A stretch of 64,000 nucleotides of DNA, from IMG/VR virus record IMGVR_UViG_3300037424_002358, positions 32,001 through 96,000 of that record; one strand, given 5' to 3'. This DNA is from a virus. The position numbers and the translations under genes are program-made. Shown here piece after piece: positions 1 through 12,232 of this stretch (position 1 is its first letter; each line of letters opens with the position of its first letter). Below the pieces are notes generated by a model, which searched no databases, was not told the DNA's origin, and worked only from the letters and a program-made list of their open reading frames with translations.

Positions 1-161
1 CCGCAGCCTACGTCGAGCACCGTGTGACAGTTCTGCGGGATCGACAGGAGGGTCTGGATCGCCTGCTGGCCCCACGCGAGGTGACCGCCGTCGGGCGGCT
101 GCGCGTACACATCCTGCGTCAGGCGGTTCAGGTACGAGTCAAACCGGGCGAAGTCGCGCAT
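1..161 (-). CDS. Class I SAM-dependent methyltransferase, 5' part (runs off the window)
   Basis: ATG at 161 overlaps the stop of the LCP gene (TGATG). Translation MRDFARFD...HTVLDVGCG contains SAM-binding motif I. Confidence 0.7.
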   Translation of the reverse strand, partial: MRDFARFDSYLNRLTQDVYAQPPDGGHLAWGQQAIQTLLSIPQNCHTVLDVGC

Positions 162-1159
162 CACGGCTCGCAGGCCTCGCCCGTCTCCAGCAGGCAGGCC
201 GTCCATGTCGGCAGGTCGTGGTTGGAAACCAGGATGCTACCGTAGAGCGGATCGCTGGCAAAGTCGACGTCGTCGAGGGCGAAGCGCAAGAAGCGCATCT
301 CGGCGTCGGGGAGCCGTGGCAACAGGTCCAGGAGGCTGACGACGGTTGCCAAATCGGCGTCCGTCTGGAACAAGTCCTTGCTCGCTACGCCCTTGTACAG
401 GTCGAGCGCCCTGGTCGGATCGTGAGCAATGGCCGCCGGCCATTGGCTCATGGCAGCCTTGACGATCTCCAGCACCCGCCGGTTGCGGTCGAGGTCGCCG
501 CCGTATGCCTTTCGCCCCCGGACGTAGCAGAGCGCCTCCAGCCCGCTGAACTCGTAGGCCGTGCCTGCGTTCCAGACGAGGTCTTCGTCTCGACAGGGGT
601 CCGCGTGCGTTACCTCCGGCGTGATCGTCAGGCCCCCCATCAGGTCGACTAGGCTCATGTACTGGACCATGTCGATGACAGCCATGGGGCCGTTGACGGT
701 CAAGCCAAACGATTCCTCCATCGTCTGCTTTAGGCAGTCGAAGCCGCCGCGATACCATGCCGCGTTGACCCGGTTGTAGCCCCCGTACTCACAGGGCACG
801 TTGACGAAGAGATCGCGCGGGACGGAGAGCAGCGTGACGCGCATCCGACTCGGCCACACGTCGGCGACGACGATGATGAAAGCGTCGCTACGCACGCCGT
901 AGCCCGGAGCCTCCGGCCGGGTTGCGCCGCGGTCCAGGCCCAGCAGCAGTCCGACGGTGCGCTCGCGCGGCTCAGGCGTTGCCGATGGCACCGCCGTCGG
1001 TTCCAGCGTCGCCGTCGCCGGCTCCGGCGCAAGGCCGCGCGGCGCGGCGGTCAGCGTCTCCGCCGACTGAGCGGTCACCGTCTGCATATCGAACGAGGTC
1101 TCCGGCATCGGCACGCAGCCCGACGCCAGGAGCATCATGACAATCGCAATGCGTTTCAT
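161..1159 (-). CDS. LCP (LytR-CpsA-Psr) family glycopolymer transferase, lipoprotein
   Basis: Lipobox LASGC and a Pro/Thr linker, then LCP motifs LLLGLD, RSDAFIIV, LLSVPRDLFV, RVNAAW, ALCYVRGR, DLDRNRR. Confidence 0.9.
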   Translation of the reverse strand: MKRIAIVMMLLASGCVPMPETSFDMQTVTAQSAETLTAAPRGLAPEPATATLEPTAVPSATPEPRERTVGLLLGLDRGATRPEAPGYGVRSDAFIIVVADVWPSRMRVTLLSVPRDLFVNVPCEYGGYNRVNAAWYRGGFDCLKQTMEESFGLTVNGPMAVIDMVQYMSLVDLMGGLTITPEVTHADPCRDEDLVWNAGTAYEFSGLEALCYVRGRKAYGGDLDRNRRVLEIVKAAMSQWPAAIAHDPTRALDLYKGVASKDLFQTDADLATVVSLLDLLPRLPDAEMRFLRFALDDVDFASDPLYGSILVSNHDLPTWTACLLETGEACEP

Positions 1160-1175
1160 ATTCCCTCTCCTCCAA

Positions 1176-2831
1176 CTAGGCTGGATGAAGTTTGTAACCC
1201 GGATTCCAATACCATCCCTCTTGACCTTGCGCCGTCTTCACCTTCCACCAGTCGCCGCCGTCCCCGCCGATGTCGAACGCCTGCAAGCGCTCGTTGGCCG
1301 CTATCCACCGGATGAGCGCCCCTGAAACATTGGGTTCACTTCGCAGGTTTCCACCTACATCGACGATCCACCCGTTGCCGGGGAACAGGGCCGAGAAATA
1401 GGGCGTCGGATTGACGATGTCGCGGCCCATCCACGGCGACCCGTTGCCCTTGTGCTTGAGCGTGATGTGCAGGTGCGCGCCGAAGGAATTGCCCGTGTTG
1501 TCGGCGAGTCCGAGGACCGTGCCCGCCGCGACCGCCTGTCCAACGCTCACCTTCGTGCTCCCAAGTTTCATGTGAGCGTAGACGCTCTCAAACTCATTGC
1601 CGCCTGCGAGGATGTGCTGGAGGCGGACATGGACGCCGTAGGCCCCGCTGCCCGCCGAGGTCTCGACGCGAGCGACCACCCCGTCGGCCATCGCCATGAG
1701 CGGCGTGCCTCCGACCGCGCGTATGTCAATCCCCTCATGACCAGGAAGTCCGAACGGCTTGTAGTTCTGCGGGTTGATGCCGTAGCGTTGCGTCACGATG
1801 GGCGTGCCGGTCACTGGCCAGCGAAGCCGAAGACGATCAGCGGCAGCCGGCAGGTCAATCTCCTCCCGGATGAGGTAGGCCCGCACCTTGTCGCTCTCGA
1901 CGTAGCCGTTGAGGGTGTTTTGACTGATGTGGGCGCGCAGGGCGTCCGATAGCACGACTTTCATGGTTCCACCTCCTGGAATTGGATCGTCGATGGGCGG
2001 GACAGGCTCGGACCAATGGAAATCGGCGAGGGCATCCTTCTCCTCTTCAGTGGCCTGCGCAAGGTCCCAGACGCTCACAGCCACGCAGCCGATCACCTTG
2101 GCCCGCTCGAATAGGGCCAGCAGTTGGGCCTTCGTGGGCCGCCAGATGCGTACCACGCCGGCCGCGTCCTTGTACTTATACGGGTAGGTCGGCGCCACCG
2201 GAAAGTATGGCAGGGGCCGGATGGAGTCGTGTTGGTCGACGCTCGTTTCAAGTTGGATGGCGCCCCCCAGAGGCCGGTTGTCGCGCAGGAAGTAGACCTG
2301 CGGGCACCAGGCATCCATGTGCGGCGCGAAGATAAGGATGGGGTACTCCGGCTGGTGGGTGGTCGGGAAGCGGTATCCGCACAGGCTGTAGTCAATGTCC
2401 GGTGCCAGGTCGTTGATCTCCGATGTGTACTCCTCGGCGTAGTCGGGATGCCTCACGTAGGAGGCCTCGGCGTTGACGACCATGTGTCGGAATCCGTACT
2501 TGCGGCAGGCGGCCACGCCAGCCGCCGCCTCCTTCTTCGGCGTGGACTGGACCGGAACCTTCTTGTCCCAATCGAAGATGATTTTTCGGCCCCATAGCCA
2601 GACCCAGCCGTACGGCTCAATCCCGGCCTCAGTCAGGGCGGCGACCGTCCGCTCCAAGAGGTCGGCATTGGTCGTCGTGCCACTCTCCCACCTCAGCCGA
2701 CATCCGTCCGCGATCTTGATCGTGACGGACGACAACCCAAGCCGCCTGCACTCGGCGACCTGTCTGGCCGGGTCTCCGCCCTGCCAGAGTCGCAACTGCC
2801 ACACCATCGCCGTCTTGCCTTGGGGGATCAT
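1176..2831 (-). CDS. Endolysin: glycoside-hydrolase-like N-terminal domain, M23 peptidase and SH3-like C-terminal domain
   Basis: M23 motifs HEGIDI, YAHM and GAHLH. TIM-barrel-like N-terminus (IKIADG, YGWVW, NAE, PQVY). C-terminal NLRSEP...WWKV...GW. Confidence 0.85.
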   Translation of the reverse strand: MIPQGKTAMVWQLRLWQGGDPARQVAECRRLGLSSVTIKIADGCRLRWESGTTTNADLLERTVAALTEAGIEPYGWVWLWGRKIIFDWDKKVPVQSTPKKEAAAGVAACRKYGFRHMVVNAEASYVRHPDYAEEYTSEINDLAPDIDYSLCGYRFPTTHQPEYPILIFAPHMDAWCPQVYFLRDNRPLGGAIQLETSVDQHDSIRPLPYFPVAPTYPYKYKDAAGVVRIWRPTKAQLLALFERAKVIGCVAVSVWDLAQATEEEKDALADFHWSEPVPPIDDPIPGGGTMKVVLSDALRAHISQNTLNGYVESDKVRAYLIREEIDLPAAADRLRLRWPVTGTPIVTQRYGINPQNYKPFGLPGHEGIDIRAVGGTPLMAMADGVVARVETSAGSGAYGVHVRLQHILAGGNEFESVYAHMKLGSTKVSVGQAVAAGTVLGLADNTGNSFGAHLHITLKHKGNGSPWMGRDIVNPTPYFSALFPGNGWIVDVGGNLRSEPNVSGALIRWIAANERLQAFDIGGDGGDWWKVKTAQGQEGWYWNPGYKLHPA

Positions 2832-3973
2832 TGCTGGCTCTCCTTGATCCTGCGCACCCGGACGGACATGCCCTCACCGACGGGCATGCCATCGTCGGGC
2901 GGTCTCTCCACCCGCGGCTCATAGCCCTCGCGTGTGCGATGCCGTTGGTCACGCTGGCGGGCACGTTGGAGGAGAAGCCACAATTTGTCCATGTTATCGG
3001 AGTCTGACATCCGCTGCGCCGGATACGACTTGAGCCACTCGCGCAACTCTTCAATGTCCATCTCGGGCAGGTCGAGCGCCGCCGGCCCCACGAGGGAGGA
3101 CTGCATCTCACCATCAGGCATGATCGACGTGCGGACGTGCGCCTGGTGGTAACAGAGGATGGCGTGGGGCGTCAAGTCGACATACTCATTTTCGCGCCGA
3201 TAGTTGAGGAGCCAAAAGTCCAACGAGGCGTGCCCCTTGAACGTCGGCATATCCTCCCACAGGTTAGCATCCCGCGGGGCCGAGGCGGCGAACCAGTACG
3301 GAAACTCGCGCCGCGCCTGAATATCGTCAATGCCCAGGCTGGCGAAGTTCTGCCCGTTCCAGATGAAATTGGGTTGCTGATCTATAGCCGTCATATCGCT
3401 GTGCCAGTCGATCCCGTCAAGCGCCAGCGTGATCCTCTCAGAGAGCGGTGCTGGCTTTAGGTTCACCCACGTCGGGCGCCCGAGCATGGAGGCCCGACTA
3501 CTGGATATCTTGTAGCGGTGAATGTCCGGCATGTTGGCCGTATGAGCCAGCGCCAGATATGCCGCGACGTCAGGTTTTGGCATCACCTCCGGCTGCTGTA
3601 TCGCGATAATAGAACCCTGAGCCAGCGGCAGGAGCGCCTTGAGGCCCGTCGTCGGGCAGGCGAGAAACTCGCCGCGTTCCAGGCGGACGGACCTGACCTG
3701 CAAATACGGCTCGAACTGCTCGACCACAGGCACCAGCGGTATGGCGGAGCCATTGTCGCAGATTAGCACCTCGAAATGGCGGTAGGTCTGGCGGGCGTAG
3801 GCTTCAAGCGTCCGCGCGATCTGAGATGCGCGGAAGTCATTGGCGCTCATGAGGATAGACAGCACGGGTTCGCCCTCGAAGCGCGGGGGCAGATCGCCGA
3901 GACGCAACTGCGGGTTAGCCCTGTTGAACTTATCGCGTTCTGGCTGGTAGTTACGGAACTCAATATCGCGCAT
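2828..3973 (-). CDS. Glycosyltransferase family 2
   Basis: LSILMSAN...QTYRHFEVLICDNGS GT-A signature. Confidence 0.8.
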   Translation of the reverse strand: MRDIEFRNYQPERDKFNRANPQLRLGDLPPRFEGEPVLSILMSANDFRASQIARTLEAYARQTYRHFEVLICDNGSAIPLVPVVEQFEPYLQVRSVRLERGEFLACPTTGLKALLPLAQGSIIAIQQPEVMPKPDVAAYLALAHTANMPDIHRYKISSSRASMLGRPTWVNLKPAPLSERITLALDGIDWHSDMTAIDQQPNFIWNGQNFASLGIDDIQARREFPYWFAASAPRDANLWEDMPTFKGHASLDFWLLNYRRENEYVDLTPHAILCYHQAHVRTSIMPDGEMQSSLVGPAALDLPEMDIEELREWLKSYPAQRMSDSDNMDKLWLLLQRARQRDQRHRTREGYEPRVERPPDDGMPVGEGMSVRVRRIKESQQ

Positions 3974-4372
3974 CTACCACCATCTTCTGCTCTTGGTCGC
4001 GTGCATGCCGGTCCCGTAGTTCGTGAGCGTGTCCTGGTAGACGTAGCAGACCAGGAGTTGTTCCGCGATCTCACTCTCATGGCCCCGAGCCTCTTTGGGC
4101 GAGATCATGACCGCGGGCGATCCGCACGTGCACATGGCGAACCAGCGCCCGATCTTGCCCTTCAGCCACTCGGGGTCGAGGAACAGGAAGTGCTCTCCGT
4201 GATAATCCGCGCACTTGACCCTGCGCCAGATGCCGTCCTGATCCTGGAAGAACAGGAACGGTTCCTTCTTGACCACATCCCCCGAGGCGAGGGTGGCTGT
4301 CGTCGGGTCGCCCCGGTGGCGGATGATATTGAACGTCATGTTCCGCCACTTGACGCTCGGGTCTGTCTTCAT
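3974..4372 (-). CDS. Hypothetical protein (Cys/His-containing)
   Basis: Start MKTDPS overlaps the upstream stop (ATGA). CTCG, C and H residues. Confidence 0.6.
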   Translation of the reverse strand: MKTDPSVKWRNMTFNIIRHRGDPTTATLASGDVVKKEPFLFFQDQDGIWRRVKCADYHGEHFLFLDPEWLKGKIGRWFAMCTCGSPAVMISPKEARGHESEIAEQLLVCYVYQDTLTNYGTGMHATKSRRWW

Positions 4373-5493
4373 AGCGACACCACCATGTAGGCCCACACCA
4401 GTTTGGAGATCACGTGCAATCCTTGATCGAGGTAAGCGTTCCGCCTCGGGATTGAGTCGGCGGCGACGGCCCACACCAGTTTGGAGATCACGTGCAATCC
4501 TTGATTGAGGTAAGCGTTCCGCCTCGGGATTGAGTCGGCGGCGAAGTGCACGACGAATTCGAGCATCCCGATTTCGATTCGTCCCGTCGCCAGCGCGACG
4601 GCACCGGCGTGCACGAGACAGTGGGCCGACATCCAGAACCACCACGGCGCGCCACCCTCCTGCACTCTGACGGGGCGTTTGAACTGCCTCATCTTGTCCG
4701 TCTGAAAGACAAAGTCGGCCAGCGCGTGGCCCACCAGTAGCCAGAACAGAACCTCAGCAAAGTCAAGCACCGTGTCGGACCTCGCGATTTCTCTGGGTCC
4801 CACGATCACTTGGTCCGCGCTGGCCAGCGCTCGACGCACGCCTGTCGGCTCGGGCGAGGGCGTGACGGTCGCGGACGGAGCCGCGGTCGGCGTCGAGAAG
4901 GGCAGATTGGCGGGATAGTCGAAAGTGAGCACGTTCCTCTCGAACCACGTCGCCAAGGACATGCCTGGCACGCCGCCCACGTTGCCCTCGACACGCACGT
5001 CCACCCACGGCAGAGTCAGGCCACCGAGGCGCTTCGCCGTTTGGTAATCGACCTCGATAGCGAGCCTCCGCACCAGGATGTATTCGTAGAGGCCCGACCT
5101 CCCCGAGCAGTCGACAACCAGGAGCGGCCCGTACCAGTCCCCGCCCGGAACGCGGACGTAGGCACTCATCCCGATGTCGCCGCAGCCCATGAGCGCCGCG
5201 CCGCCCTTGAAGCCCCCGAGGCCCATCCCTCGGTTGCCGGCGACCCGCTCCATGATGCCGTCGGCGTATGAGGACATCGCCCCGCTGAAATACTGCGGGT
5301 GGCTGAAGCGTGCCGTCTCGTAGGTCACCATCCCCGGCACGCAGTAGCCCTCGAACAGATAGCCATTCTCCTTGATGTCGTCGGCGCAATCGACCGACCA
5401 CGGCACGGACAGCGGAGTGGGCGTGGGCGCGGGCGTGGCCGAAGGCGTCGGCGGCGTCAGGCCGACGATGAGGGACAGGATAAGCGCCAGCAT
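4369..5493 (-). CDS. Secreted RlpA/DPBB-like domain fused to a DUF3307-like membrane domain
   Basis: Signal peptide and Pro/Thr linker; GPLLVVDC...IEVD beta-barrel pattern; C-terminal HALADFVFQT, HCLVH, DQGLH. Confidence 0.55.
   Translation of the reverse strand: MLALILSLIVGLTPPTPSATPAPTPTPLSVPWSVDCADDIKENGYLFEGYCVPGMVTYETARFSHPQYFSGAMSSYADGIMERVAGNRGMGLGGFKGGAALMGCGDIGMSAYVRVPGGDWYGPLLVVDCSGRSGLYEYILVRRLAIEVDYQTAKRLGGLTLPWVDVRVEGNVGGVPGMSLATWFERNVLTFDYPANLPFSTPTAAPSATVTPSPEPTGVRRALASADQVIVGPREIARSDTVLDFAEVLFWLLVGHALADFVFQTDKMRQFKRPVRVQEGGAPWWFWMSAHCLVHAGAVALATGRIEIGMLEFVVHFAADSIPRRNAYLNQGLHVISKLVWAVAADSIPRRNAYLDQGLHVISKLVWAYMVVSL
4390..4544. repeat. Tandem direct repeat, 78-bp period, 2 copies, 1 mismatch
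   Basis: GGCCCACACCAGTTTGGAGATCACG... starts at both 4390 and 4468 and duplicates 26 codons in frame. Confidence 0.95.
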
Positions 5494-5496
5494 CGC

Positions 5497-6177
5497 TCAG
5501 GCTGGGTCCGGGGCTTCGACGGCTAGGCATGCCTCACCCTCGCGCTTCAGGAGGAGGTCGAGGTCCGGGTAGGATAGGTATGCGTGACCGTCCCGCCCCC
5601 ACGACCGGCCCCAACTGTTCTTGATGCGAACCATCCGCGTGATCTCGTTCACACCGTTGGCGACATACGCGTGCCCGCCGACAGTGAAGCCCCGGACGTG
5701 GACCACGCCGAAGATGTCAGGCGTCATCATGCCATCCATCCAGTCCGTCCCCAGGACGACCGGCCCGAAGTGCTTGATCGTGTCAATCACGTCGCGGGCG
5801 CTCCATCCCCAACGGTACTCCATGATGAGTCCGCGGGCCGCGAGGCCCTTCGCACCGCCACGGACCGACGAGCCTTCGTAGTCGGAGCCGGCCCACTCGT
5901 CGTTCTCCTGAGCCAGGTGATAAAGTTCGACGGGGTCCGCCTGTGCGGCGTGCGTGATGGGTCCGTCGCAGAGCCAATGCGACCAGGAGTAACCGACGCA
6001 CATCGGCGTCTCGCCCTGATCGTTCCAGCATCCGCCGTCCCACCAGTAGCGCCAGAGGCGGAAGGGCCGTGGCCTACGTTCGAGCAGCGCACGCATCGTC
6101 CACAGCCGATCTCGGCTGTCCGGTGCCACCCGCCGCCCCATGCCGTACCCCATGGAATCATCGCGTCTGACTCGCAT
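5497..6177 (-). CDS. Papain-like (C1 family) cysteine peptidase
   Basis: DQGETPMCVGY (oxyanion Q, catalytic C), GGHAY (H), KNSWGRSWG (N). Confidence 0.9.
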   Translation of the reverse strand: MRVRRDDSMGYGMGRRVAPDSRDRLWTMRALLERRPRPFRLWRYWWDGGCWNDQGETPMCVGYSWSHWLCDGPITHAAQADPVELYHLAQENDEWAGSDYEGSSVRGGAKGLAARGLIMEYRWGWSARDVIDTIKHFGPVVLGTDWMDGMMTPDIFGVVHVRGFTVGGHAYVANGVNEITRMVRIKNSWGRSWGRDGHAYLSYPDLDLLLKREGEACLAVEAPDPA

Positions 6178-6179
6178 GC

Positions 6180-6419
6180 CTACATCTCCCTCTGGTCAGA
6201 GTGCCTTGCGCGCCGCCGCTCGCGCCGATTCTCATGCCGCCTAATGCTACAGCCCAGGCAACTACAACCCAGGCCGCGCACGCTGGCACGGCGGCCAACA
6301 TCGCGTGGCGTCAGCGGGAACGGAGTCGGCATCATTCGGTTGTACATCTGGAGCAACCGCAGAGCGCGGGACTTCGAGCGCCAGTCGTGATGCCTGCGAA
6401 AGTCCCGCGTGCGATTCAC
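6180..6419 (-). CDS. Small basic hypothetical protein (CSCxxC)
   Basis: Fills the gap between neighbours with a start/stop overlap; GCSCLGCS motif. Confidence 0.55.
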   Translation of the reverse strand: MNRTRDFRRHHDWRSKSRALRLLQMYNRMMPTPFPLTPRDVGRRASVRGLGCSCLGCSIRRHENRRERRRARHSDQREM

Positions 6420-7237
6420 CCCGTATCCTCCAACGGCGTCAGGGCAATGATAAACCGCGCCTGGCGCCAGTAACTCACCTTCGGATTCGACTCCTCGCCG
6501 CCTAGCCGTAGCCCACAGAAGAACAGGGTCAGCACATCCGTCCTCGGCAGGACGGCGAAGCCCGACTCAGGATAGTTGTAGGCGAGGTACTCAATCATGT
6601 CGCCCACATGGGTTGAGAGACGGTCAACCTGATCGGGGGCGATCCGCACCACGGCCACGATCTGCGACCGTGAGGAACGCCTTGCCTGCATCAGCAGGAC
6701 CTCGGTCCCGAGCAACTTGTCCAGGACCGCCTCAGCGTCCCCCACGGTGCGTAGGTAGCCCCTCCCGTCCCTCTCGACGTATTCCTGTAACGGCGAGGCC
6801 GTTTGGTCTAGGCCGGAGTGCAGCCACAGCCCCACCCGGCCTGCGTCATCGAGCCACGCGAGGGCTGTGCCAGCCCCCAGGTCGAAGATTCCGCTACTCA
6901 GGGCATCCGGGGTCCAGATGTGCGGCGTGAACGGCTCCAGCAAGGCTAGGCCGTCGAAGGCCGTGACAATCTGCCCTCCCCCCGACATGTCGAGTCCGTC
7001 GTAGAGCCATGGGTTGGGGATCGGCGTCAGTGTCGGCGCGGCCGCAGTCGCCGGCTGCGGCAGGAACGGCGTGATCGTCGGCGTCGCGCTCGCCTGAAAC
7101 CTCAAGGTCATCTCGACACGCTCAGGTTCCGAGCGCCGTGGACCATAGATGCTCCAGGCGAGCGCGACTAGACCAGCCACCGTCAGGCTGGCCCCCGCGA
7201 TCAACAGGATAGGCGCGATCTCATCGGTGCGCGGCAC
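6416..7237 (-). CDS. Sortase-like transpeptidase
   Basis: N-terminal TM anchor and Pro/Thr linker, then sortase elements in the expected order: LWLHS (His), GTEVLL, VVRIAPDQV, LTLFFC (Cys), RFIIA (Arg). Start uncertain (GTG 7237 or 7291). Confidence 0.7.
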   Translation of the reverse strand: MPRTDEIAPILLIAGASLTVAGLVALAWSIYGPRRSEPERVEMTLRFQASATPTITPFLPQPATAAAPTLTPIPNPWLYDGLDMSGGGQIVTAFDGLALLEPFTPHIWTPDALSSGIFDLGAGTALAWLDDAGRVGLWLHSGLDQTASPLQEYVERDGRGYLRTVGDAEAVLDKLLGTEVLLMQARRSSRSQIVAVVRIAPDQVDRLSTHVGDMIEYLAYNYPESGFAVLPRTDVLTLFFCGLRLGGEESNPKVSYWRQARFIIALTPLEDTG

Positions 7238-7835
7238 GTCCGCGCATACCCCAGAAGCCGACGGCGGCGCCAGCCAGGGTGATAAGCGCACCCACGATCA
7301 TTGCCGTCAGGTCAGCGCCGCCAGTCGGCGGGTGCCTCGGCGGCTTGCGCGTCGGCGTGGGTGTCACGCATTGTCCGTCCACGCAGGGGTCAGCCGTGTC
7401 CGTGGGCGTCACGCATTGGCCCTCACATGGATCGGTCGTGACCGTCGCGGTCGGCGTCTGAGAAGACTCAGACTCCGTCGGCGTTACCGTTGGCGAAGGA
7501 GTCGAAGTCGGCGGTTTCGTCGGCTTCGGAGTCGGCGTCACCTCATGGCGATAGGACCAGTGGCTTAGGTCGCAAGCATCCTCATCGCCAACCTGCTGCT
7601 CGACCTTGTCAAACGACCCGAGCGTCAAGTATCCCTCGCAGCCCTGACTGTTGTCGCTTCCCCCTTTGCCGCAGTATTCAACGGCACCGTTGACCTCCTC
7701 CAAGGGCGGGTCCTGATGCTCAGACCATCCATCCGCCCCATGCGGGCAAACAGTCTCGCCCGTCGCGCCCGCCGTCAATGCCGCGACTAGCAGAACCGCA
7801 AGCGCCAGAACCGTAGCCATCCCTATGCGTTTCAT
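7221..7835 (-). CDS. Secreted Thr/Pro-rich protein with an LPXTG-like sorting signal
   Basis: Signal peptide MKRIGMATVLALAVLL, Cys-containing head, T/P/S stalk, then HPPTGG, a hydrophobic helix and the basic tail RGRAAHR. Confidence 0.75.
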   Translation of the reverse strand: MKRIGMATVLALAVLLVAALTAGATGETVCPHGADGWSEHQDPPLEEVNGAVEYCGKGGSDNSQGCEGYLTLGSFDKVEQQVGDEDACDLSHWSYRHEVTPTPKPTKPPTSTPSPTVTPTESESSQTPTATVTTDPCEGQCVTPTDTADPCVDGQCVTPTPTRKPPRHPPTGGADLTAMIVGALITLAGAAVGFWGMRGRAAHR

Positions 7836-8191
7836 CCTCTCCTCGCTTTCTTGCAGTTGGCGAGCCGATTGTCCTCGGCCCGCATCGATTCCGTTGCCTC
7901 CTGCATGATCGCCGCCTGATAGTCGGCCTGCTCGACCCACCTACCGATCATGTCTGTTACCGCGCTCAGCGTCTCGGGCCTCATCTCGCTGCTCGCCGCC
8001 ATGATGACGGTCTGCAAGTCGCCGATGATGTCCTTCTCCTTCAACACCGAACCCATCAGCCGCCTCGTCGTCCTGACATAGATCGCAAGCCTAGTTTCGA
8101 GCGACCGCATGAACTCCTCAATATCGGCCACTAGGTCTCCGACATCCGGCTTGCGCTTCAAGCCCGCCGGCCAGCCTGCCTCGGCGTTCAC
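7832..8191 (-). CDS. Hypothetical helical protein
   Basis: Coupled to both neighbours by start/stop overlaps. Confidence 0.6.
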   Translation of the reverse strand: MNAEAGWPAGLKRKPDVGDLVADIEEFMRSLETRLAIYVRTTRRLMGSVLKEKDIIGDLQTVIMAASSEMRPETLSAVTDMIGRWVEQADYQAAIMQEATESMRAEDNRLANCKKARRG

Positions 8192-9105
8192 AGGACTCTA
8201 GCCTCCCTCAGCAGTTGATCGACGCGGGCATCCCAGGTGTGCGGGGCGACGGCGAGCCTTGCCCTTTCGCCCAATTCCGATGCCTCCTTCGGGTGGTCCA
8301 GCAGCCATACCACGTTGGCGCAGGCCTCTCCCTCAGTCGTGAACGAAAGGAAGTCGCGGCCCTCCTGGAACATCTCGGCTAGGTCGGGCACGCGGTTGAG
8401 GACGGGCGCGATCCCGAACGCCATGACCTCGAACACGCGTGCCGTTGTATCCTGCATGCTCGACCAGTTCAGCCCCACGCGCGTCGAATGGTAAATCCGC
8501 TTCGCGTCGTCGTAGGCCGGCCCGAGTTCATAGGCGACCTTCTTGCCGAGCCGCCGGAGGTGGTCCACAAGCAGGTTGCGGTTCGGATAATGGAGGCCGA
8601 GTAGCGCCGCATCGTATTCGCGCTCCGCGAACGGGATCGCCGTGGGTGAGTGCCACACCGGGTCGTAGCCGTACGGGAGCCATCGGTCACCGGGCTTGAG
8701 ATAGGGCTTTTGCATCCCGAAGAAGAGGTCGGCCTTCTCGCGGGCCTTCGCGTAGTCGAGCACGTGCGGGTCGGTGCCGACGACGATGTACTTGCAGGAT
8801 GGCCGACCATAGGTCGTCAGCCCGGCGTTGGCCTCAATCCACACGTCGGCCTGCCAGGGCATTGACTTCTCGACGAGCGCGTACATCATCTCCGGCCGCG
8901 GCCCGATGCTCATGGGCAGATCGGGCCGGTGGACGTAGGACATGGGCAAGTGCATGCCCGTCCCGCCGCCCCACGGAATCCAGCGCCCGCTGTAGGGTCC
9001 GGCGGTATACAACTCCACGTCCGAGCGGCGCCGCAGGGCCTCGAAGATGTAGCGCCCCATTGCGACCGGGTACCAGATGGTGGAAAAGCCGACCCGGATC
9101 GTCAT
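8188..9105 (-). CDS. Glycosyltransferase (GT-B, CgeB/Glyco_trans_1_2-like)
   Basis: WLPYGYDP, ARVFEVMAFG, HTWDARV. Confidence 0.8.
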   Translation of the reverse strand: MTIRVGFSTIWYPVAMGRYIFEALRRRSDVELYTAGPYSGRWIPWGGGTGMHLPMSYVHRPDLPMSIGPRPEMMYALVEKSMPWQADVWIEANAGLTTYGRPSCKYIVVGTDPHVLDYAKAREKADLFFGMQKPYLKPGDRWLPYGYDPVWHSPTAIPFAEREYDAALLGLHYPNRNLLVDHLRRLGKKVAYELGPAYDDAKRIYHSTRVGLNWSSMQDTTARVFEVMAFGIAPVLNRVPDLAEMFQEGRDFLSFTTEGEACANVVWLLDHPKEASELGERARLAVAPHTWDARVDQLLREARVL

Positions 9106-9674
9106 GCCTTCACCGCCGCGAAGATGCGCACCGGCTCGGGAAGCGTGATCGGCGTCAGCCCGTAACGATGGACAGTTGGCCCGATCACGTCGTCGTCGAT
9201 CTCCGGCTTCCAGCCCTCGCCGACATCCTGCGGCACTGCGCCGTAGTAGTCGTGCACCGCGATCACGTCGCCGGGCCGCAACACGGGAGCGTAGAACGGG
9301 AACTCCATCGCCTTCTCGCCGTTGTCGCAGTAAATCATGGCCGTCTCCGAGGATCGGTCAACAAATTTGTGCACCCCCCCGCGCATGTCTTCCGTCAGGC
9401 AGTCGCCGGCGACGAACTCGAAGCCCGCATACAGCCGACTGAGTCCGGCGACGGCGTGGCTGATCTGCGGGTTGATCTCGACCGCCATGTACTCGAAGCC
9501 CTTGAAGGCCATGATCGGCGTGACGACCGCCGTCAGCCCGCCCACGTGGACGCCCAACTCGACGAACCGCCGGACGTCGTAGCGGTTGATGAGGTCGAGG
9601 ATCACGCCGACCTCAATCCACGTGTGGCCCACCAGCAGGCCGTAGGGGTCAATCTTGAAACGGTTGAGCGCCAT
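9102..9674 (-). CDS. Class I SAM-dependent methyltransferase-like protein (CmcI/Methyltransf_24-like)
   Basis: FVELGVHVGG, IYCDNG, LRPGDVIAVHDY. Confidence 0.75.
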   Translation of the reverse strand: MALNRFKIDPYGLLVGHTWIEVGVILDLINRYDVRRFVELGVHVGGLTAVVTPIMAFKGFEYMAVEINPQISHAVAGLSRLYAGFEFVAGDCLTEDMRGGVHKFVDRSSETAMIYCDNGEKAMEFPFYAPVLRPGDVIAVHDYYGAVPQDVGEGWKPEIDDDVIGPTVHRYGLTPITLPEPVRIFAAVKA

Positions 9675-9798
9675 CAGAGCCTCTCCCGGTTACACTGTCC
9701 GGGTCGTCGTCCCTGCGCCTCTCGGTCGGGCGACCGCTTTGCCCAGCGACGATGCTGTCTAGCCCCCGACTGTCGTTCTCTTCGCTGTTATTTGGGCA

Positions 9799-9874
9799 TG
9801 GTAGCGGGCGTCGGAGTTGAACCGACATGTGGGGGTTTATGGGACCCGTGAGGTCGCCGTCCCTCCCGCCCGCA
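9799..9874 (-). tRNA. tRNA with CAT anticodon (Met/fMet-like, atypical)
   Basis: 76-nt cloverleaf: acceptor GCGGGC/GCCCGC, D stem GAGG/CCTC, anticodon CAT at positions 34-36, T arm GTCGG-TTCAACT-CCGAC, encoded ACCA end. Confidence 0.85.
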
Positions 9875-9880
9875 TCGCTC

Positions 9881-10072
9881 CTAGAGTTCGGGGATCTTCA
9901 GGACCATGCCGGGCTTGATGATGTAGGGGTTCCCCCCGATCACATCCTTGTTGGCGTCATAGATGCGCTTCCAATGCTCCTGACCGCCGGGACCGTAATA
10001 CTTGAGGGCAATCAACCGGAGCGAGTCGCCAACGAGCACCGTGTGTTCCCTGACCTTCTTGTCCTCGTCCAC
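9881..10072 (-). CDS. LysM domain protein
   Basis: HTVLVGDSLRLIALKYYG...IYDAN...IKPGMVLKIP. Confidence 0.9.
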   Translation of the reverse strand: MDEDKKVREHTVLVGDSLRLIALKYYGPGGQEHWKRIYDANKDVIGGNPYIIKPGMVLKIPEL

Positions 10073-10081
10073 CTTCGCCTC

Positions 10082-10786
10082 CTATGGTCTCTTGGGGGTA
10101 TTCGGGAGTTCCCATTTCTGCGCAAACAGCGCGCGCATGCGGACCGTCTGCTCCATGCGCTCGGGCGTGTAGCCGATCGTTCCGGCGGACGCGTGCAACA
10201 GTTGCAGGCCCGGCATCGGCACGATGGGGATGTTGGCGGCGCGCGCCTTCATCCCCAGATCGACATCTTCGTAGTCGTTCGGCCAGAAGCGCGGGTCGAA
10301 TCTCTGCAACTCGTTCCACACCGCGCCCGGCGCAGCCAGGAAGTAGCCCATCGGGTAGCGGAACGTCACCCCGCCAAAGACATTCCAGCCCGCCGGCCAG
10401 TCCACCATCTTATGGCAGATGAGCGCGCGAGGGGACGCGCGGAACGCCTCATCCAGGGCTGACAGGAAGTCCCCCCCGATCTGCACGTCATCCGAGAGGC
10501 AAATCCAGATGTCGCCCTCGGCCTCGTCCATTGCATGGTTGAACCCCTGACCGAATCCGCGGTTGGGGTCGAGCCGCAATGTCTGCACCGTGAAGCGCGC
10601 CGCCAGGCCGAACGATGCGGCCACCAGCGAGGCCTCGCGGTTGGGGCTACCGTTGTCGCAGACGACGACCTCAAACGACGGATCGTCTCGACCCGCGATG
10701 TAGCCGTCGATCTCCGCGAGGCGTGCTTGGAGCAGATCGGGCTTCGTGTAGGTCAGGATGAGAATACTAAATCTAGGGGCTGGCAC
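10082..10786 (-). CDS. Glycosyltransferase family 2
   Basis: FSILILTY, VVCDNGS, NRGFGQGFN, LSDD, YEDVDL. Confidence 0.9.
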   Translation of the reverse strand: MPAPRFSILILTYTKPDLLQARLAEIDGYIAGRDDPSFEVVVCDNGSPNREASLVAASFGLAARFTVQTLRLDPNRGFGQGFNHAMDEAEGDIWICLSDDVQIGGDFLSALDEAFRASPRALICHKMVDWPAGWNVFGGVTFRYPMGYFLAAPGAVWNELQRFDPRFWPNDYEDVDLGMKARAANIPIVPMPGLQLLHASAGTIGYTPERMEQTVRMRALFAQKWELPNTPKRP

Positions 10787-11600
10787 CTTCGGCCTCCCGC
10801 AGGGCTTTCAGGCCCTCCTGTGGTCCGTAGATCGGCACGTTCATGGCCTTTGCTCGATCTACCAGGAGACCCCCCCGCAGGGGCCGCATGGCTGTTCCCC
10901 ACGGCTTGTCCGTCGGGCGGACGAGCGCGGGGTCGGCGCCAAACGCTTCGGCGATGGCTTGGCACCATGCGAAGCGGCTGATCGTGGCGTCGCCGGCGAC
11001 GTGCAGATGGTGCAGCGACAGGTCAAGTCTACCAGAAAACGCCTCCGCAAGCCACAGCAGGGCCTCCACAAGGTGCGGAATATAGGTCGGCGTCACGAAC
11101 TGGTTGGCAGGCATCTCGACCGGCATGCCGAGTTCCAGTTGGTCACGCGTCCGCCGGACAAAGTCCGAACGCTGTCCCGGCCCATACAGGTCGAGCGTGC
11201 GTATGACGAGGGTCGGCTGACGCACCTGAGCCGCCGCCTCGCCGCCCAACTTCGTCATCCCATAGAAGTTGAGCGGTGACGGCACCGCATCCTCCTGGTA
11301 CGGACCCTCGTTGCCGAAGACGTAGCCCGTGGAAATGTGGAGTAGCAGGCCTCCGAAGGCCCGCCGCACGTTGCCTGGCCCGCGGGTGTTGACAAGCACG
11401 GCCCGCTCCCGGTTCTCGCGTTGCTCGGCTCCATCCACGTCGGAGTAGGCCGCGGCGTTGACAATCGCGTCGAGGCCGATCGGGATTGCCTCACCGAGTT
11501 GGGCTGGGGCTAGCGTGATGTCGGCCACGATGGCTTCGCAGCCTGCGGCTACGAGCGCGCTTCCCAGACGCCCCCGGGGACCCGTGACGCCGATTCGCAC
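10773..11600 (-). CDS. rmlD: dTDP-4-dehydrorhamnose reductase-like SDR
   Basis: VTGPRGRLG, NAAAYSDVDGAE, HISTGYVF, PLNFYGMTK (YxxxK). Start taken at GTG 11600. Confidence 0.8.
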   Translation of the reverse strand: MRIGVTGPRGRLGSALVAAGCEAIVADITLAPAQLGEAIPIGLDAIVNAAAYSDVDGAEQRENRERAVLVNTRGPGNVRRAFGGLLLHISTGYVFGNEGPYQEDAVPSPLNFYGMTKLGGEAAAQVRQPTLVIRTLDLYGPGQRSDFVRRTRDQLELGMPVEMPANQFVTPTYIPHLVEALLWLAEAFSGRLDLSLHHLHVAGDATISRFAWCQAIAEAFGADPALVRPTDKPWGTAMRPLRGGLLVDRAKAMNVPIYGPQEGLKALREAEGASP

Positions 11601-11602
11601 GT

Positions 11603-12232
11603 TCAGATTTCGCGCCCCTCGGCGCGTGCCTGGCGGATGCGCTGCACCCGGATGGAGGCCGGGGGAAGCGGGCGAGGCGCTTCCGGCCCGAAGTCCATGT
11701 CGGACGGCGATGCGACCGTGCGCGGGGCCGAAGGATCGGGTTGGGCGGTCCAGACCGACCCCCCGAGGGGTAGCGTCCATACCTTGCCCATCAGGACGGC
11801 CTTGAAGGCCGTGGGCTCGTTCGGCGCGACGTACACGTCGGCCAGGCTCCCGCCGGGCGGCTCAGGGATCGCTAGGGCGATCATGGCGCCCATGCTGACG
11901 GGTAGCCCGTCGGGGCCGGTGGGCCATGTCCCCTCTCTGATCCAGCCCTCGACGCCGGCGAGCGTGCGGTACAGAAACGGCACGCCGTCCGAACGTGAGG
12001 CCCGCCACACGTCCTCGTTTGTCCATCGGAAGGCCTCGGTGACCTTCTCGGACTTTCGCTTGGGAGGCTCCACCGGGATAGGCGGCAAGAGTTTCAGCGC
12101 CTCGTCGGTCGCCTTGATCGGCTCATCGAGCGCTGGCGGCAGCGGGATGGCGTCCGCGGCTGGCGGCTGATCCGCGGCCGTGACGCCTGGACCCTCAACC
12201 GCCGGTTCCGGCACGTTCGGTTCGTCGGTCAT
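11603..12232 (-). CDS. Hypothetical Pro-rich protein
   Basis: ATG at 12232 overlaps the upstream stop. Confidence 0.55.
   Translation of the reverse strand: MTDEPNVPEPAVEGPGVTAADQPPAADAIPLPPALDEPIKATDEALKLLPPIPVEPPKRKSEKVTEAFRWTNEDVWRASRSDGVPFLYRTLAGVEGWIREGTWPTGPDGLPVSMGAMIALAIPEPPGGSLADVYVAPNEPTAFKAVLMGKVWTLPLGGSVWTAQPDPSAPRTVASPSDMDFGPEAPRPLPPASIRVQRIRQARAEGREI

Follow-up and report, generated by a model that had tools for sequence, protein, structure and literature searches.

A two-gene cassette of a sediment phage, read as a sortase-fold enzyme and its neighbouring substrate with an HPPTG sorting signal

Two overlapping genes in the genome of a sediment phage are described here, which probably encode a sortase-type enzyme and the protein that it anchors. 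The DNA analysed (the window) is a stretch of 64,000 nucleotides from the IMG/VR virus record IMGVR_UViG_3300037424_002358, which is 111,962 bp long with direct terminal repeats and of which the window represents bases 32001-96000. Among the genes of this stretch are those for a terminase, a portal-like protein and a virion structural protein. All positions below are those of the window, and all features of the two genes lie on the minus strand. The enzyme gene occupies 6416..7237 and the substrate gene, which precedes it in the direction of transcription, 7221..7835. An original prediction, made from the sequence alone, had proposed that the former encodes a divergent sortase and the latter its likely substrate.

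The enzyme gene encodes a protein of 273 amino acids (aa), starts with a GTG codon at 7237, stops at 6416-6418 and shares 17 nt with the substrate gene. The GTG start fits the N-termini of the homologues P0003 and P0004 better than a longer start at 7291. The protein consists of an N-terminal membrane anchor (7148..7216, residues ~8-30; helix 4-31 in the structure model), a poorly conserved Pro/Thr-rich linker (6986..7147, residues ~31-84), for which the predicted local distance difference test score (pLDDT) of the model is 53-72, and a predicted sortase-fold catalytic domain (6419..6985, residues 85-273). The membrane anchor and the three short motifs that had been placed in sortase order, WLHS (138-141), LTLFFC (236-241) and RFIIA (261-265), are all present in this reading frame. 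In an exhaustive HMMER search, 1.84 billion cluster representatives yielded 71 relatives at E<=0.001, 25 of them at E<=1e-30, and 64 of the 71 constitute the enzyme family alignment (A2) used for the conservation counts and for AlphaFold2. The N-terminus of most family members is likewise hydrophobic, and eight of the 64 carry a twin-arginine translocation (TAT) signal instead, which places the catalytic domain of the family, as judged from these sequences, outside the cytoplasm.

The substrate gene encodes a protein of 204 aa, with an ATG at 7835 that is preceded by GGAGAGG and a stop codon at 7221-7223. Its product begins with a signal peptide (7761..7835, residues ~1-25), read from the sequence as MKR followed by a hydrophobic run, and continues with a Cys-containing passenger domain (7533..7757, residues 27-101) and a Thr/Pro-rich stalk with two CxxxC-like pairs (7344..7532, residues 102-164; pLDDT about 47-64). 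The sorting motif HPPTG (7320..7334, residues 168-172) follows, and a hydrophobic segment (~176-197) with the basic tail RGRAAHR (198-204) completes the protein (7224..7310). The AlphaFold2 model shows helices at the N-terminus (2-25) and the C-terminus (174-201), and between them a folded domain over residues ~30-97 and a disordered stalk. The protein thus has the tripartite layout of LPXTG-type cell-wall sorting signals, namely motif, hydrophobic segment and basic tail, and every element that the original prediction had listed for the adjacent upstream gene is found in this frame. No NCBIfam model matched it at E<=1. When stop-to-stop six-frame open reading frames (ORFs) of at least 60 aa from the whole 111,962-bp genome were scanned with a regular expression (xPx[TSA][GASN] plus a hydrophobic run plus a basic tail), two of 1137 ORFs matched; one was the substrate gene and the other a Ser/Thr/Pro-rich frame.

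The structure of the enzyme was predicted from the 64-sequence alignment with a mean pLDDT of 91.5, and 221 of the 273 residues scored at least 90. Foldseek returned 56 matches to the PDB at E<=0.001 and, among the matches listed, all were sortases, representing classes A-F. A scan of 48,161 representative PDB chains with VIA-align, which is independent of Foldseek and unbiased over the PDB, found Z>=5 for 18 chains, all of them sortases (Z 6.4-8.4), and the next row below the sortases reached Z 3.8. The superposition on 5b23_A (Z 8.4) aligned 147 residues with a root mean square deviation (rmsd) of 3.8 A, and in a second look with the same program the best 50 rows were all sortases, headed by 5yfk (Z 8.6, rmsd 3.8, 145 residues aligned). 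The range aligned to sortases, residues 85..270/273, covers the whole domain. The weight of these comparisons lies in the sortase-exclusive list, the gap to the next fold and the whole-domain coverage, rather than in the absolute Z value. The predicted structure of the enzyme is thus a sortase fold, and the sortase beta-barrel on which the original prediction had been staked is present in the model. The best class rows were those of SrtB (Z 8.4-8.6), with SrtE1, SrtA and SrtC within about one Z unit; classes A-F tie, and in the model no class is clearly the nearest. L,D-transpeptidases and further enzymes of the Cys/His type were absent among the fold matches listed, an absence that falls short of excluding them. 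The viral structures of BFVD gave no match at E<=0.001. As a separate lead only, 28 of 30 feature matches in the ESM Atlas were sortase clusters (score 0.91).

In sortases, the catalytic His lies at the end of strand beta4, the Cys at the end of beta7 and the Arg at the start of beta8. In the predicted structure, His140 (6818-6820) comes directly after strand 135-139, Cys241 (6515-6517) is the last residue but one of strand 236-242, and Arg261 (6455-6457) comes second in strand 260-268; this order and these strand positions are the arrangement known for sortases. His140 and Cys241 are kept in 64 of 64 family members and Arg261 in 63 of 64, so that the proposed triad is conserved, in sortase order, across the family. 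Gly142 and Gly242 are invariant in the same alignment, as is Arg198 (6644-6646), which lies in a segment AAVR[IV]PP; Glu155 is found in 62 and Glu248 in 60 of the 64 sequences. We know of no counterpart of Arg198, Glu155 and Glu248 in sortases, and these residues may bear on the specificity for His or Glu at the first motif position. The TLxTC signature of sortases is absent: the corresponding stretch here is LTLFFCG, and the residues at this site are FC in 55, TC in five and other in four of the 64 members. Measured from the catalytic Cys, the aligned range extends 8-12 residues further in the model than in 5yfk, 9j0t and 7s4o, whose catalytic Cys numbers were taken from the PDB titles (C232, C222 and C208, respectively). 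This is circumstantial evidence for one longer loop between Cys241 and Arg261 in the modelled enzyme.

Related loci were collected from IMG/VR (L001), metagenome contigs (L002-L011), genome contigs (L012 and L013) and a Patescibacteria sample (L021), by searches with subgroups of the family alignment, A2 and A3 being too diverse. DNA upstream of the enzyme gene was available for ten distinct loci: the window, L001, L002, L004, L005, L006, L007, L012, L013 and L021. L003 equals L001 in sequence over the 3 kb compared, and L008-L011 begin inside the enzyme gene and so fall outside the count. In all ten, a gene upstream on the same strand ends in a motif plus a hydrophobic segment and a basic tail; the co-occurrence of enzyme and substrate in related genomes, proposed beforehand as a check, is thus borne out at every locus where it could be seen. 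The signal-bearing gene is directly upstream in nine loci, and in L001 a gap of 266 nt, holding a small ORF, lies between. With the exception of L001, the two reading frames overlap or nearly abut. In three loci, the next ORF directly after the enzyme gene is one of 75 aa whose long hydrophobic stretch was taken for two membrane segments (L002 5945-6172, L004 5253-5480 and L008 367-594).

The motif regions of these ten substrates are KPPRHPPTGG in the window, KPPSHPGTGP in L001, KPPRHPPTGP in both L002 and L004, EPPEHPPTGP in L005, KPSIHIGTGP in L006, PPEEHPDTGS in L007, GPPDEPPTGP in L012, RPREEPATGP in L013 and PTPIEPSLGG in L021. When the ten are aligned, Gly172 is invariant, and Thr171 and Pro169 are each kept in nine. 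The first motif residue is non-canonical, being His in seven loci and Glu in three, as against Leu (Asn or Ile in some classes) in known sorting signals. The form H[P/I]xTG belongs to the phage-type loci, and EPxTG or EPSLG to the three Patescibacteria loci. On a quick maximum-likelihood tree of the enzyme family, a clade of 49 rows holds all seven His-type pairs, and a clade of 22 rows holds all three Glu-type pairs together with the TAT members; the split between them has an SH-aLRT support of 98. This association of motif and clade is consistent with co-evolution of enzyme and motif and, as one event, is no test of it.

The passenger domain has relatives of its own. Over residues 27-101, it shares 55% identity (E 1e-23) with the domain at the N-terminus of the L012 substrate, from a Woesebacteria metagenome-assembled genome (MAG), and 15 further homologues were found. 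In 16 sequences of the domain, C30, W37, Y54, C55, K57, G59 and LSHWSY (90-95) are invariant; its signature, over about 75 residues, reads VCPxGxxWSxHQ ... LSHWSY with the two invariant Cys C30 and C55. The structure model is confident solely over residues 30-100; the domain matched no Pfam family and no PDB fold at E<=0.001. The homologues P0077 and P0078 terminate in HPPTG signals and P0082 in HPKTAG, and P0086, which matches the C-terminal part only, terminates in HPNTGG. P0087 and P0090 carry the passenger domain with LAETG and LAVTG signals. The domain is found N-terminal in proteins with HPxTG, EPPTG or LAxTG signals, some of which end in ...EGxxFGxxK. Because the same domain bears LAETG or LAVTG elsewhere, these comparisons support HPxTG as an interchangeable sorting signal and the passenger as a recurrent surface module that would be attached via such signals. 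P0076 and P0080 each combine, in a single polypeptide, the passenger domain with a Thr/Pro linker, a motif (LPKAG or LPSTG) and a sortase-like domain of canonical type; PF04203 scores 25.8 bits on P0080, just below its cut-off.

Relatives of the pair were found both in viral and in cellular DNA. In the viral contig L001, replication-initiator and RusA-like genes flank the pair, and L004 carries ParB-methyltransferase and tape-measure-like genes. The two genes of the pair are all that the related loci share with the neighbourhood in the window, and, since the pair alone is shared between neighbourhoods, it appears from the sequences to move as a two-gene cassette. The placement in a late region, which the original prediction had found unusual, fits the window, where the pair is co-oriented with structural genes, but not L001, where its neighbours are genes for replication and recombination. 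A scan of IMG/VR with the single enzyme protein, or with alignments A6, A10 and A11, returned nothing, and alignment A1 returned L001 only. L012 is the Woesebacteria MAG, and L013 belongs to a 0.6-Mb genome that is syntenic with L012 and close to it in sequence; its record is titled uncultured Gammaproteobacteria, a label that looks doubtful. Each of these two genomes also holds three canonical PF04203 sortases, so the enzyme family is an extra system there. By our reading of the matches, the catalytic half of the enzyme profile was matched in only two of the 301 genomes of the Patescibacteria sample (G001 and G128), and the family is thus rare among them. Eighteen of the 20 genomes matched at E<=0.001 did so over profile positions to ~108 only, that is, the anchor and the Pro-rich linker, and were treated as spurious. 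G128 has a second match at C1:87734-88273.

In the window, the pair is embedded in a block of cell-envelope and wall-modifying genes that is co-oriented both with the pair and with the structural genes. It comprises an LCP (LytR-CpsA-Psr) glycopolymer transferase (161-1159, minus strand; PF03816, E 1.1e-19), an M23 peptidase with an SH3 domain (1176-2831), a GT2 glycosyltransferase (2828-3973), a GT1-like glycosyltransferase (8188-9105), a methyltransferase-like protein (9102-9674), a LysM protein (9881-10072), a second GT2 glycosyltransferase (10082-10786) and an RmlD-like reductase (10773-11780). The block also includes, just downstream of the pair and on the minus strand, a protein in which a secreted N-terminal domain is joined to a DUF3307 membrane domain (4369-5493) and a papain-like peptidase (5497-6177), which matched phrog_16701 with E 3e-49 and Pfam C1 with only 17 bits. 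An Arg-rich ORF of 79 aa (6180-6419) overlaps with its start the stop of the enzyme gene (GTGA). By eye, a domain resembling the N-terminal part of the 4369-5493 product is also seen in L001 at 9703-10944. Neither a sigma-70-like promoter on the minus strand nor an intrinsic terminator was found around the pair, so the two genes are probably transcribed together with their neighbours. Sequencing-run look-up revealed DNA near-identical to the phage in sediment metagenome runs and listed no RNA sequencing run with it, and megablast of window positions 4000-12000 against GenBank phages gave no match. The LCP enzyme and the wall-anchoring system would both point to a host with a monoderm-type wall. 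A search for LCP homologues gave no useful taxonomy for the host; a hint of Chloroflexota in the ESM Atlas is a lead only.

Based on these features, we consider it likely (a probability of roughly 70%) that the two overlapping genes form a working enzyme-substrate pair for sortase-type anchoring, and probably a private system that fastens a protein to the host cell wall. The signal peptide would export the 204-aa protein, and its C-terminal hydrophobic segment and basic tail would retain it in the membrane. The N-terminal anchor of the 273-aa enzyme would hold it in that membrane too, and its sortase-fold domain would lie outside the cell on a linker of ~50 residues. Cys241, aided by His140 and Arg261, would then cut HPPTG, most likely between Thr171 and Gly172, and the resulting thioacyl intermediate would pass the substrate to an amine acceptor of the envelope, most likely a peptidoglycan precursor. 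As a result, the small Cys-containing domain would be displayed on its Thr/Pro stalk at the surface of the infected cell; receptor masking or superinfection exclusion had been suggested in the original prediction as possible purposes. The phage would supply its own enzyme because motifs that begin with His or Glu instead of Leu go with a distinct enzyme family, one that also occurs, though rarely, in cells. We read the enzyme, from its modelled structure, as belonging to a sortase-fold family that has so far gone unrecognised, has a sorting motif of its own and is carried in a two-gene cassette. What is directly supported is the predicted fold, together with the conservation of the residues, the pairing of the genes and a motif type that follows the enzyme clade.

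Several observations weigh against this interpretation. The enzyme sequence, whether as a single protein or as the 64-member profile, matched no named family in Pfam, PHROGs, NCBIfam or the PDB; PF04203 matched none of the 64 family members at E<=0.1, and, in a search that did match control genomes, it found nothing in the phage genome. A profile-profile comparison (hhalign) with five canonical sortases, drawn from two Patescibacteria genomes, gave an E-value of 0.054 and a probability of only 1%; in favour of the interpretation, its alignment did pair the AAVRIPP strand and FCG, if weakly, with a sortase strand and TLxTC. The Z values of 8-8.6 are middling on the scale of VIA-align itself, and the co-location of His140, Cys241 and Arg261 in three dimensions is inferred from topology and global superposition of the model only. 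In addition, the Thr of the canonical TLxTC is Phe in 55 of the 64 members, the spacing of 20 residues from Cys to Arg is above that of solved sortases as judged from the aligned ranges, and the second invariant Arg, R198, is without an assigned role. The charges flanking the anchor of the window enzyme are ambiguous for topology. As to the pairing, L002 and L004, and likewise L012 and L013, are close relatives, so that the ten loci represent about eight independent lineages; the motif type follows the enzyme clade, yet a single change on the tree amounts to one event. Finally, a suitable acceptor in the host wall is assumed.

Most of the remaining probability lies with variants of the second half-reaction. 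It is unlikely, for example, that a real sortase-fold Cys enzyme acts on its neighbour and transfers it to an acceptor other than peptidoglycan, such as a polymer (pilus-like), a glycopolymer, a lipid or another protein. Such an acceptor would suit the fold matches, which favour no class and in which A-F tie within one Z unit, the position of the pair beside the LCP glycopolymer transferase, three glycosyltransferases and the RmlD-like reductase, and the extra invariant residues R198, E155 and E248, which have no known sortase counterpart. However, the tripartite signal is the classical design for wall anchoring, and a pilus would be at odds with the shortness of the substrate and with the single signal-bearing ORF counted in the genome, since pili usually need several subunits; nor was a pilin-type motif seen, though no search aimed at one was made. 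Sortases are also known to hydrolyse their substrates when a nucleophile is lacking, and the divergent surroundings of the active site leave the second half-reaction open; the enzyme may therefore only cut, removing the C-terminal anchor so that the passenger is released to the medium or matured without transpeptidation. We regard this as quite improbable, because a signal peptide alone would be enough for release, and a retention signal kept with a dedicated enzyme over about eight lineages fits anchoring better.

Explanations that dispense with the pairing or with catalysis fare worse. That the enzyme is a working sortase whose real targets are host proteins, with the neighbouring gene a coincidence, is very improbable given the adjacency in ten of ten loci, most with overlapping or nearly abutting frames, and the motif type that follows the enzyme clade. 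A lysis apparatus (holin, antiholin or spanin-like), in which two membrane proteins would share with sortases the fold only, is hardly credible: the M23/SH3 peptidase and the papain-like peptidase are nearby, and the hydrophobic 75-aa ORF follows the enzyme gene in L002, L004 and L008, but a His and a Cys that are invariant over 64 members indicate catalysis, the pair of L001 is among replication genes, and the pair is also found in cellular Patescibacteria, where no phage-family genes were noticed beside it in loci that were left unscanned against phage libraries. A wider version of the wall-anchoring interpretation is possible but doubtful, namely that the pair is the protein arm of an envelope-rebuilding module of the phage that gives the infected cell a new surface coat. 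In such a module, the phage glycosyltransferases, the RmlD-like reductase and the LCP enzyme (161-11780) would assemble a sugar polymer and attach it to the stalk or the wall, and the private sortase, as a seventh class whose natural HPxTG/EPxTG specificity is orthogonal to the LPxTG enzymes of the host, would fasten the glycoprotein.

The enzyme shares with the sortases of classes A-F (MEROPS C60, PF04203; for example, SrtB of C. perfringens, 5b23/5yfk, and SrtE1 of S. coelicolor, 5cuw) the predicted fold, the His...Cys...Arg order with its strand positions, an N-terminal anchor or export signal, and an adjacent dedicated substrate gene whose product combines xPxTG with a hydrophobic segment and basic tail. 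It differs from them in that its sequence has no detectable similarity to any sortase model, in its signatures (W-x-H-S-G, A-A-V-R-[IV]-P-P, [FT]-C-G-R and Q-A-R-F), in a probably longer Cys-Arg loop, and in a motif that starts with His or Glu, not with Leu, Asn or Ile.

Pairs of this kind have been reported from phages before. According to a preprint of October 2026 (bioRxiv 10.64898/2026.10.24.761521), huge phages of the gut carry 24 SrtB genes, each with an upstream PXTG substrate; these enzymes match PF04203, are related to those of Bacillota, and come from animal-gut phages of more than 200 kb. Those modules resemble the pair described here in combining a phage sortase with an immediately upstream signal-peptide protein that has a PXTG-type signal, and the role proposed for them is the display of phage protein on the host surface. 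In contrast to them, the present enzyme is invisible to PF04203, belongs to a 112-kb sediment phage, is paired with HPxTG, and has cellular relatives found in Patescibacteria. Phage sortase-substrate pairs are therefore already known, and what is new here is the PF04203-invisible enzyme, the motif and the habitat. According to a study on Actinomyces oris (PMC6381275), an LCP enzyme (LcpA) and a sortase (SrtA) act on one wall-anchored protein (GspA); the LCP gene of the phage is 5 kb from the pair, and a link between it and the substrate is a lead only.

The pentapeptide class itself is known from protein engineering. PMC9126251 mentions an engineered HPXTG-specific sortase for semisynthesis of histone H2B and its variants; there the specificity is laboratory-made, whereas the HPxTG signal here is natural and is paired with an enzyme family that looks unrelated. 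In the full-text literature, as far as the passages retrieved for HPXTG, HPPTG, EPXTG and EPPTG go, the motif was known only as a target of engineered sortases. Among literature titles on sortases encoded by phages or by the Candidate Phyla Radiation, we could not find any description of the enzyme family.

If the interpretation as an anchoring pair is true, it adds a family of sortase fold that escapes current annotation models entirely, and the anchoring of surface proteins is under-counted in uncultivated monoderm lineages and their phages. It would also provide a natural enzyme for HPxTG and EPxTG, which, as an orthogonal ligase of natural origin, may be of interest to protein chemists. 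The idea that phages redecorate their hosts by means of sortase-substrate pairs has so far rested on canonical SrtB of gut huge phages. The pair described here would extend it to an environmental phage and to a different enzyme lineage, in a genome where the cassette adjoins a whole block of wall-modifying genes.

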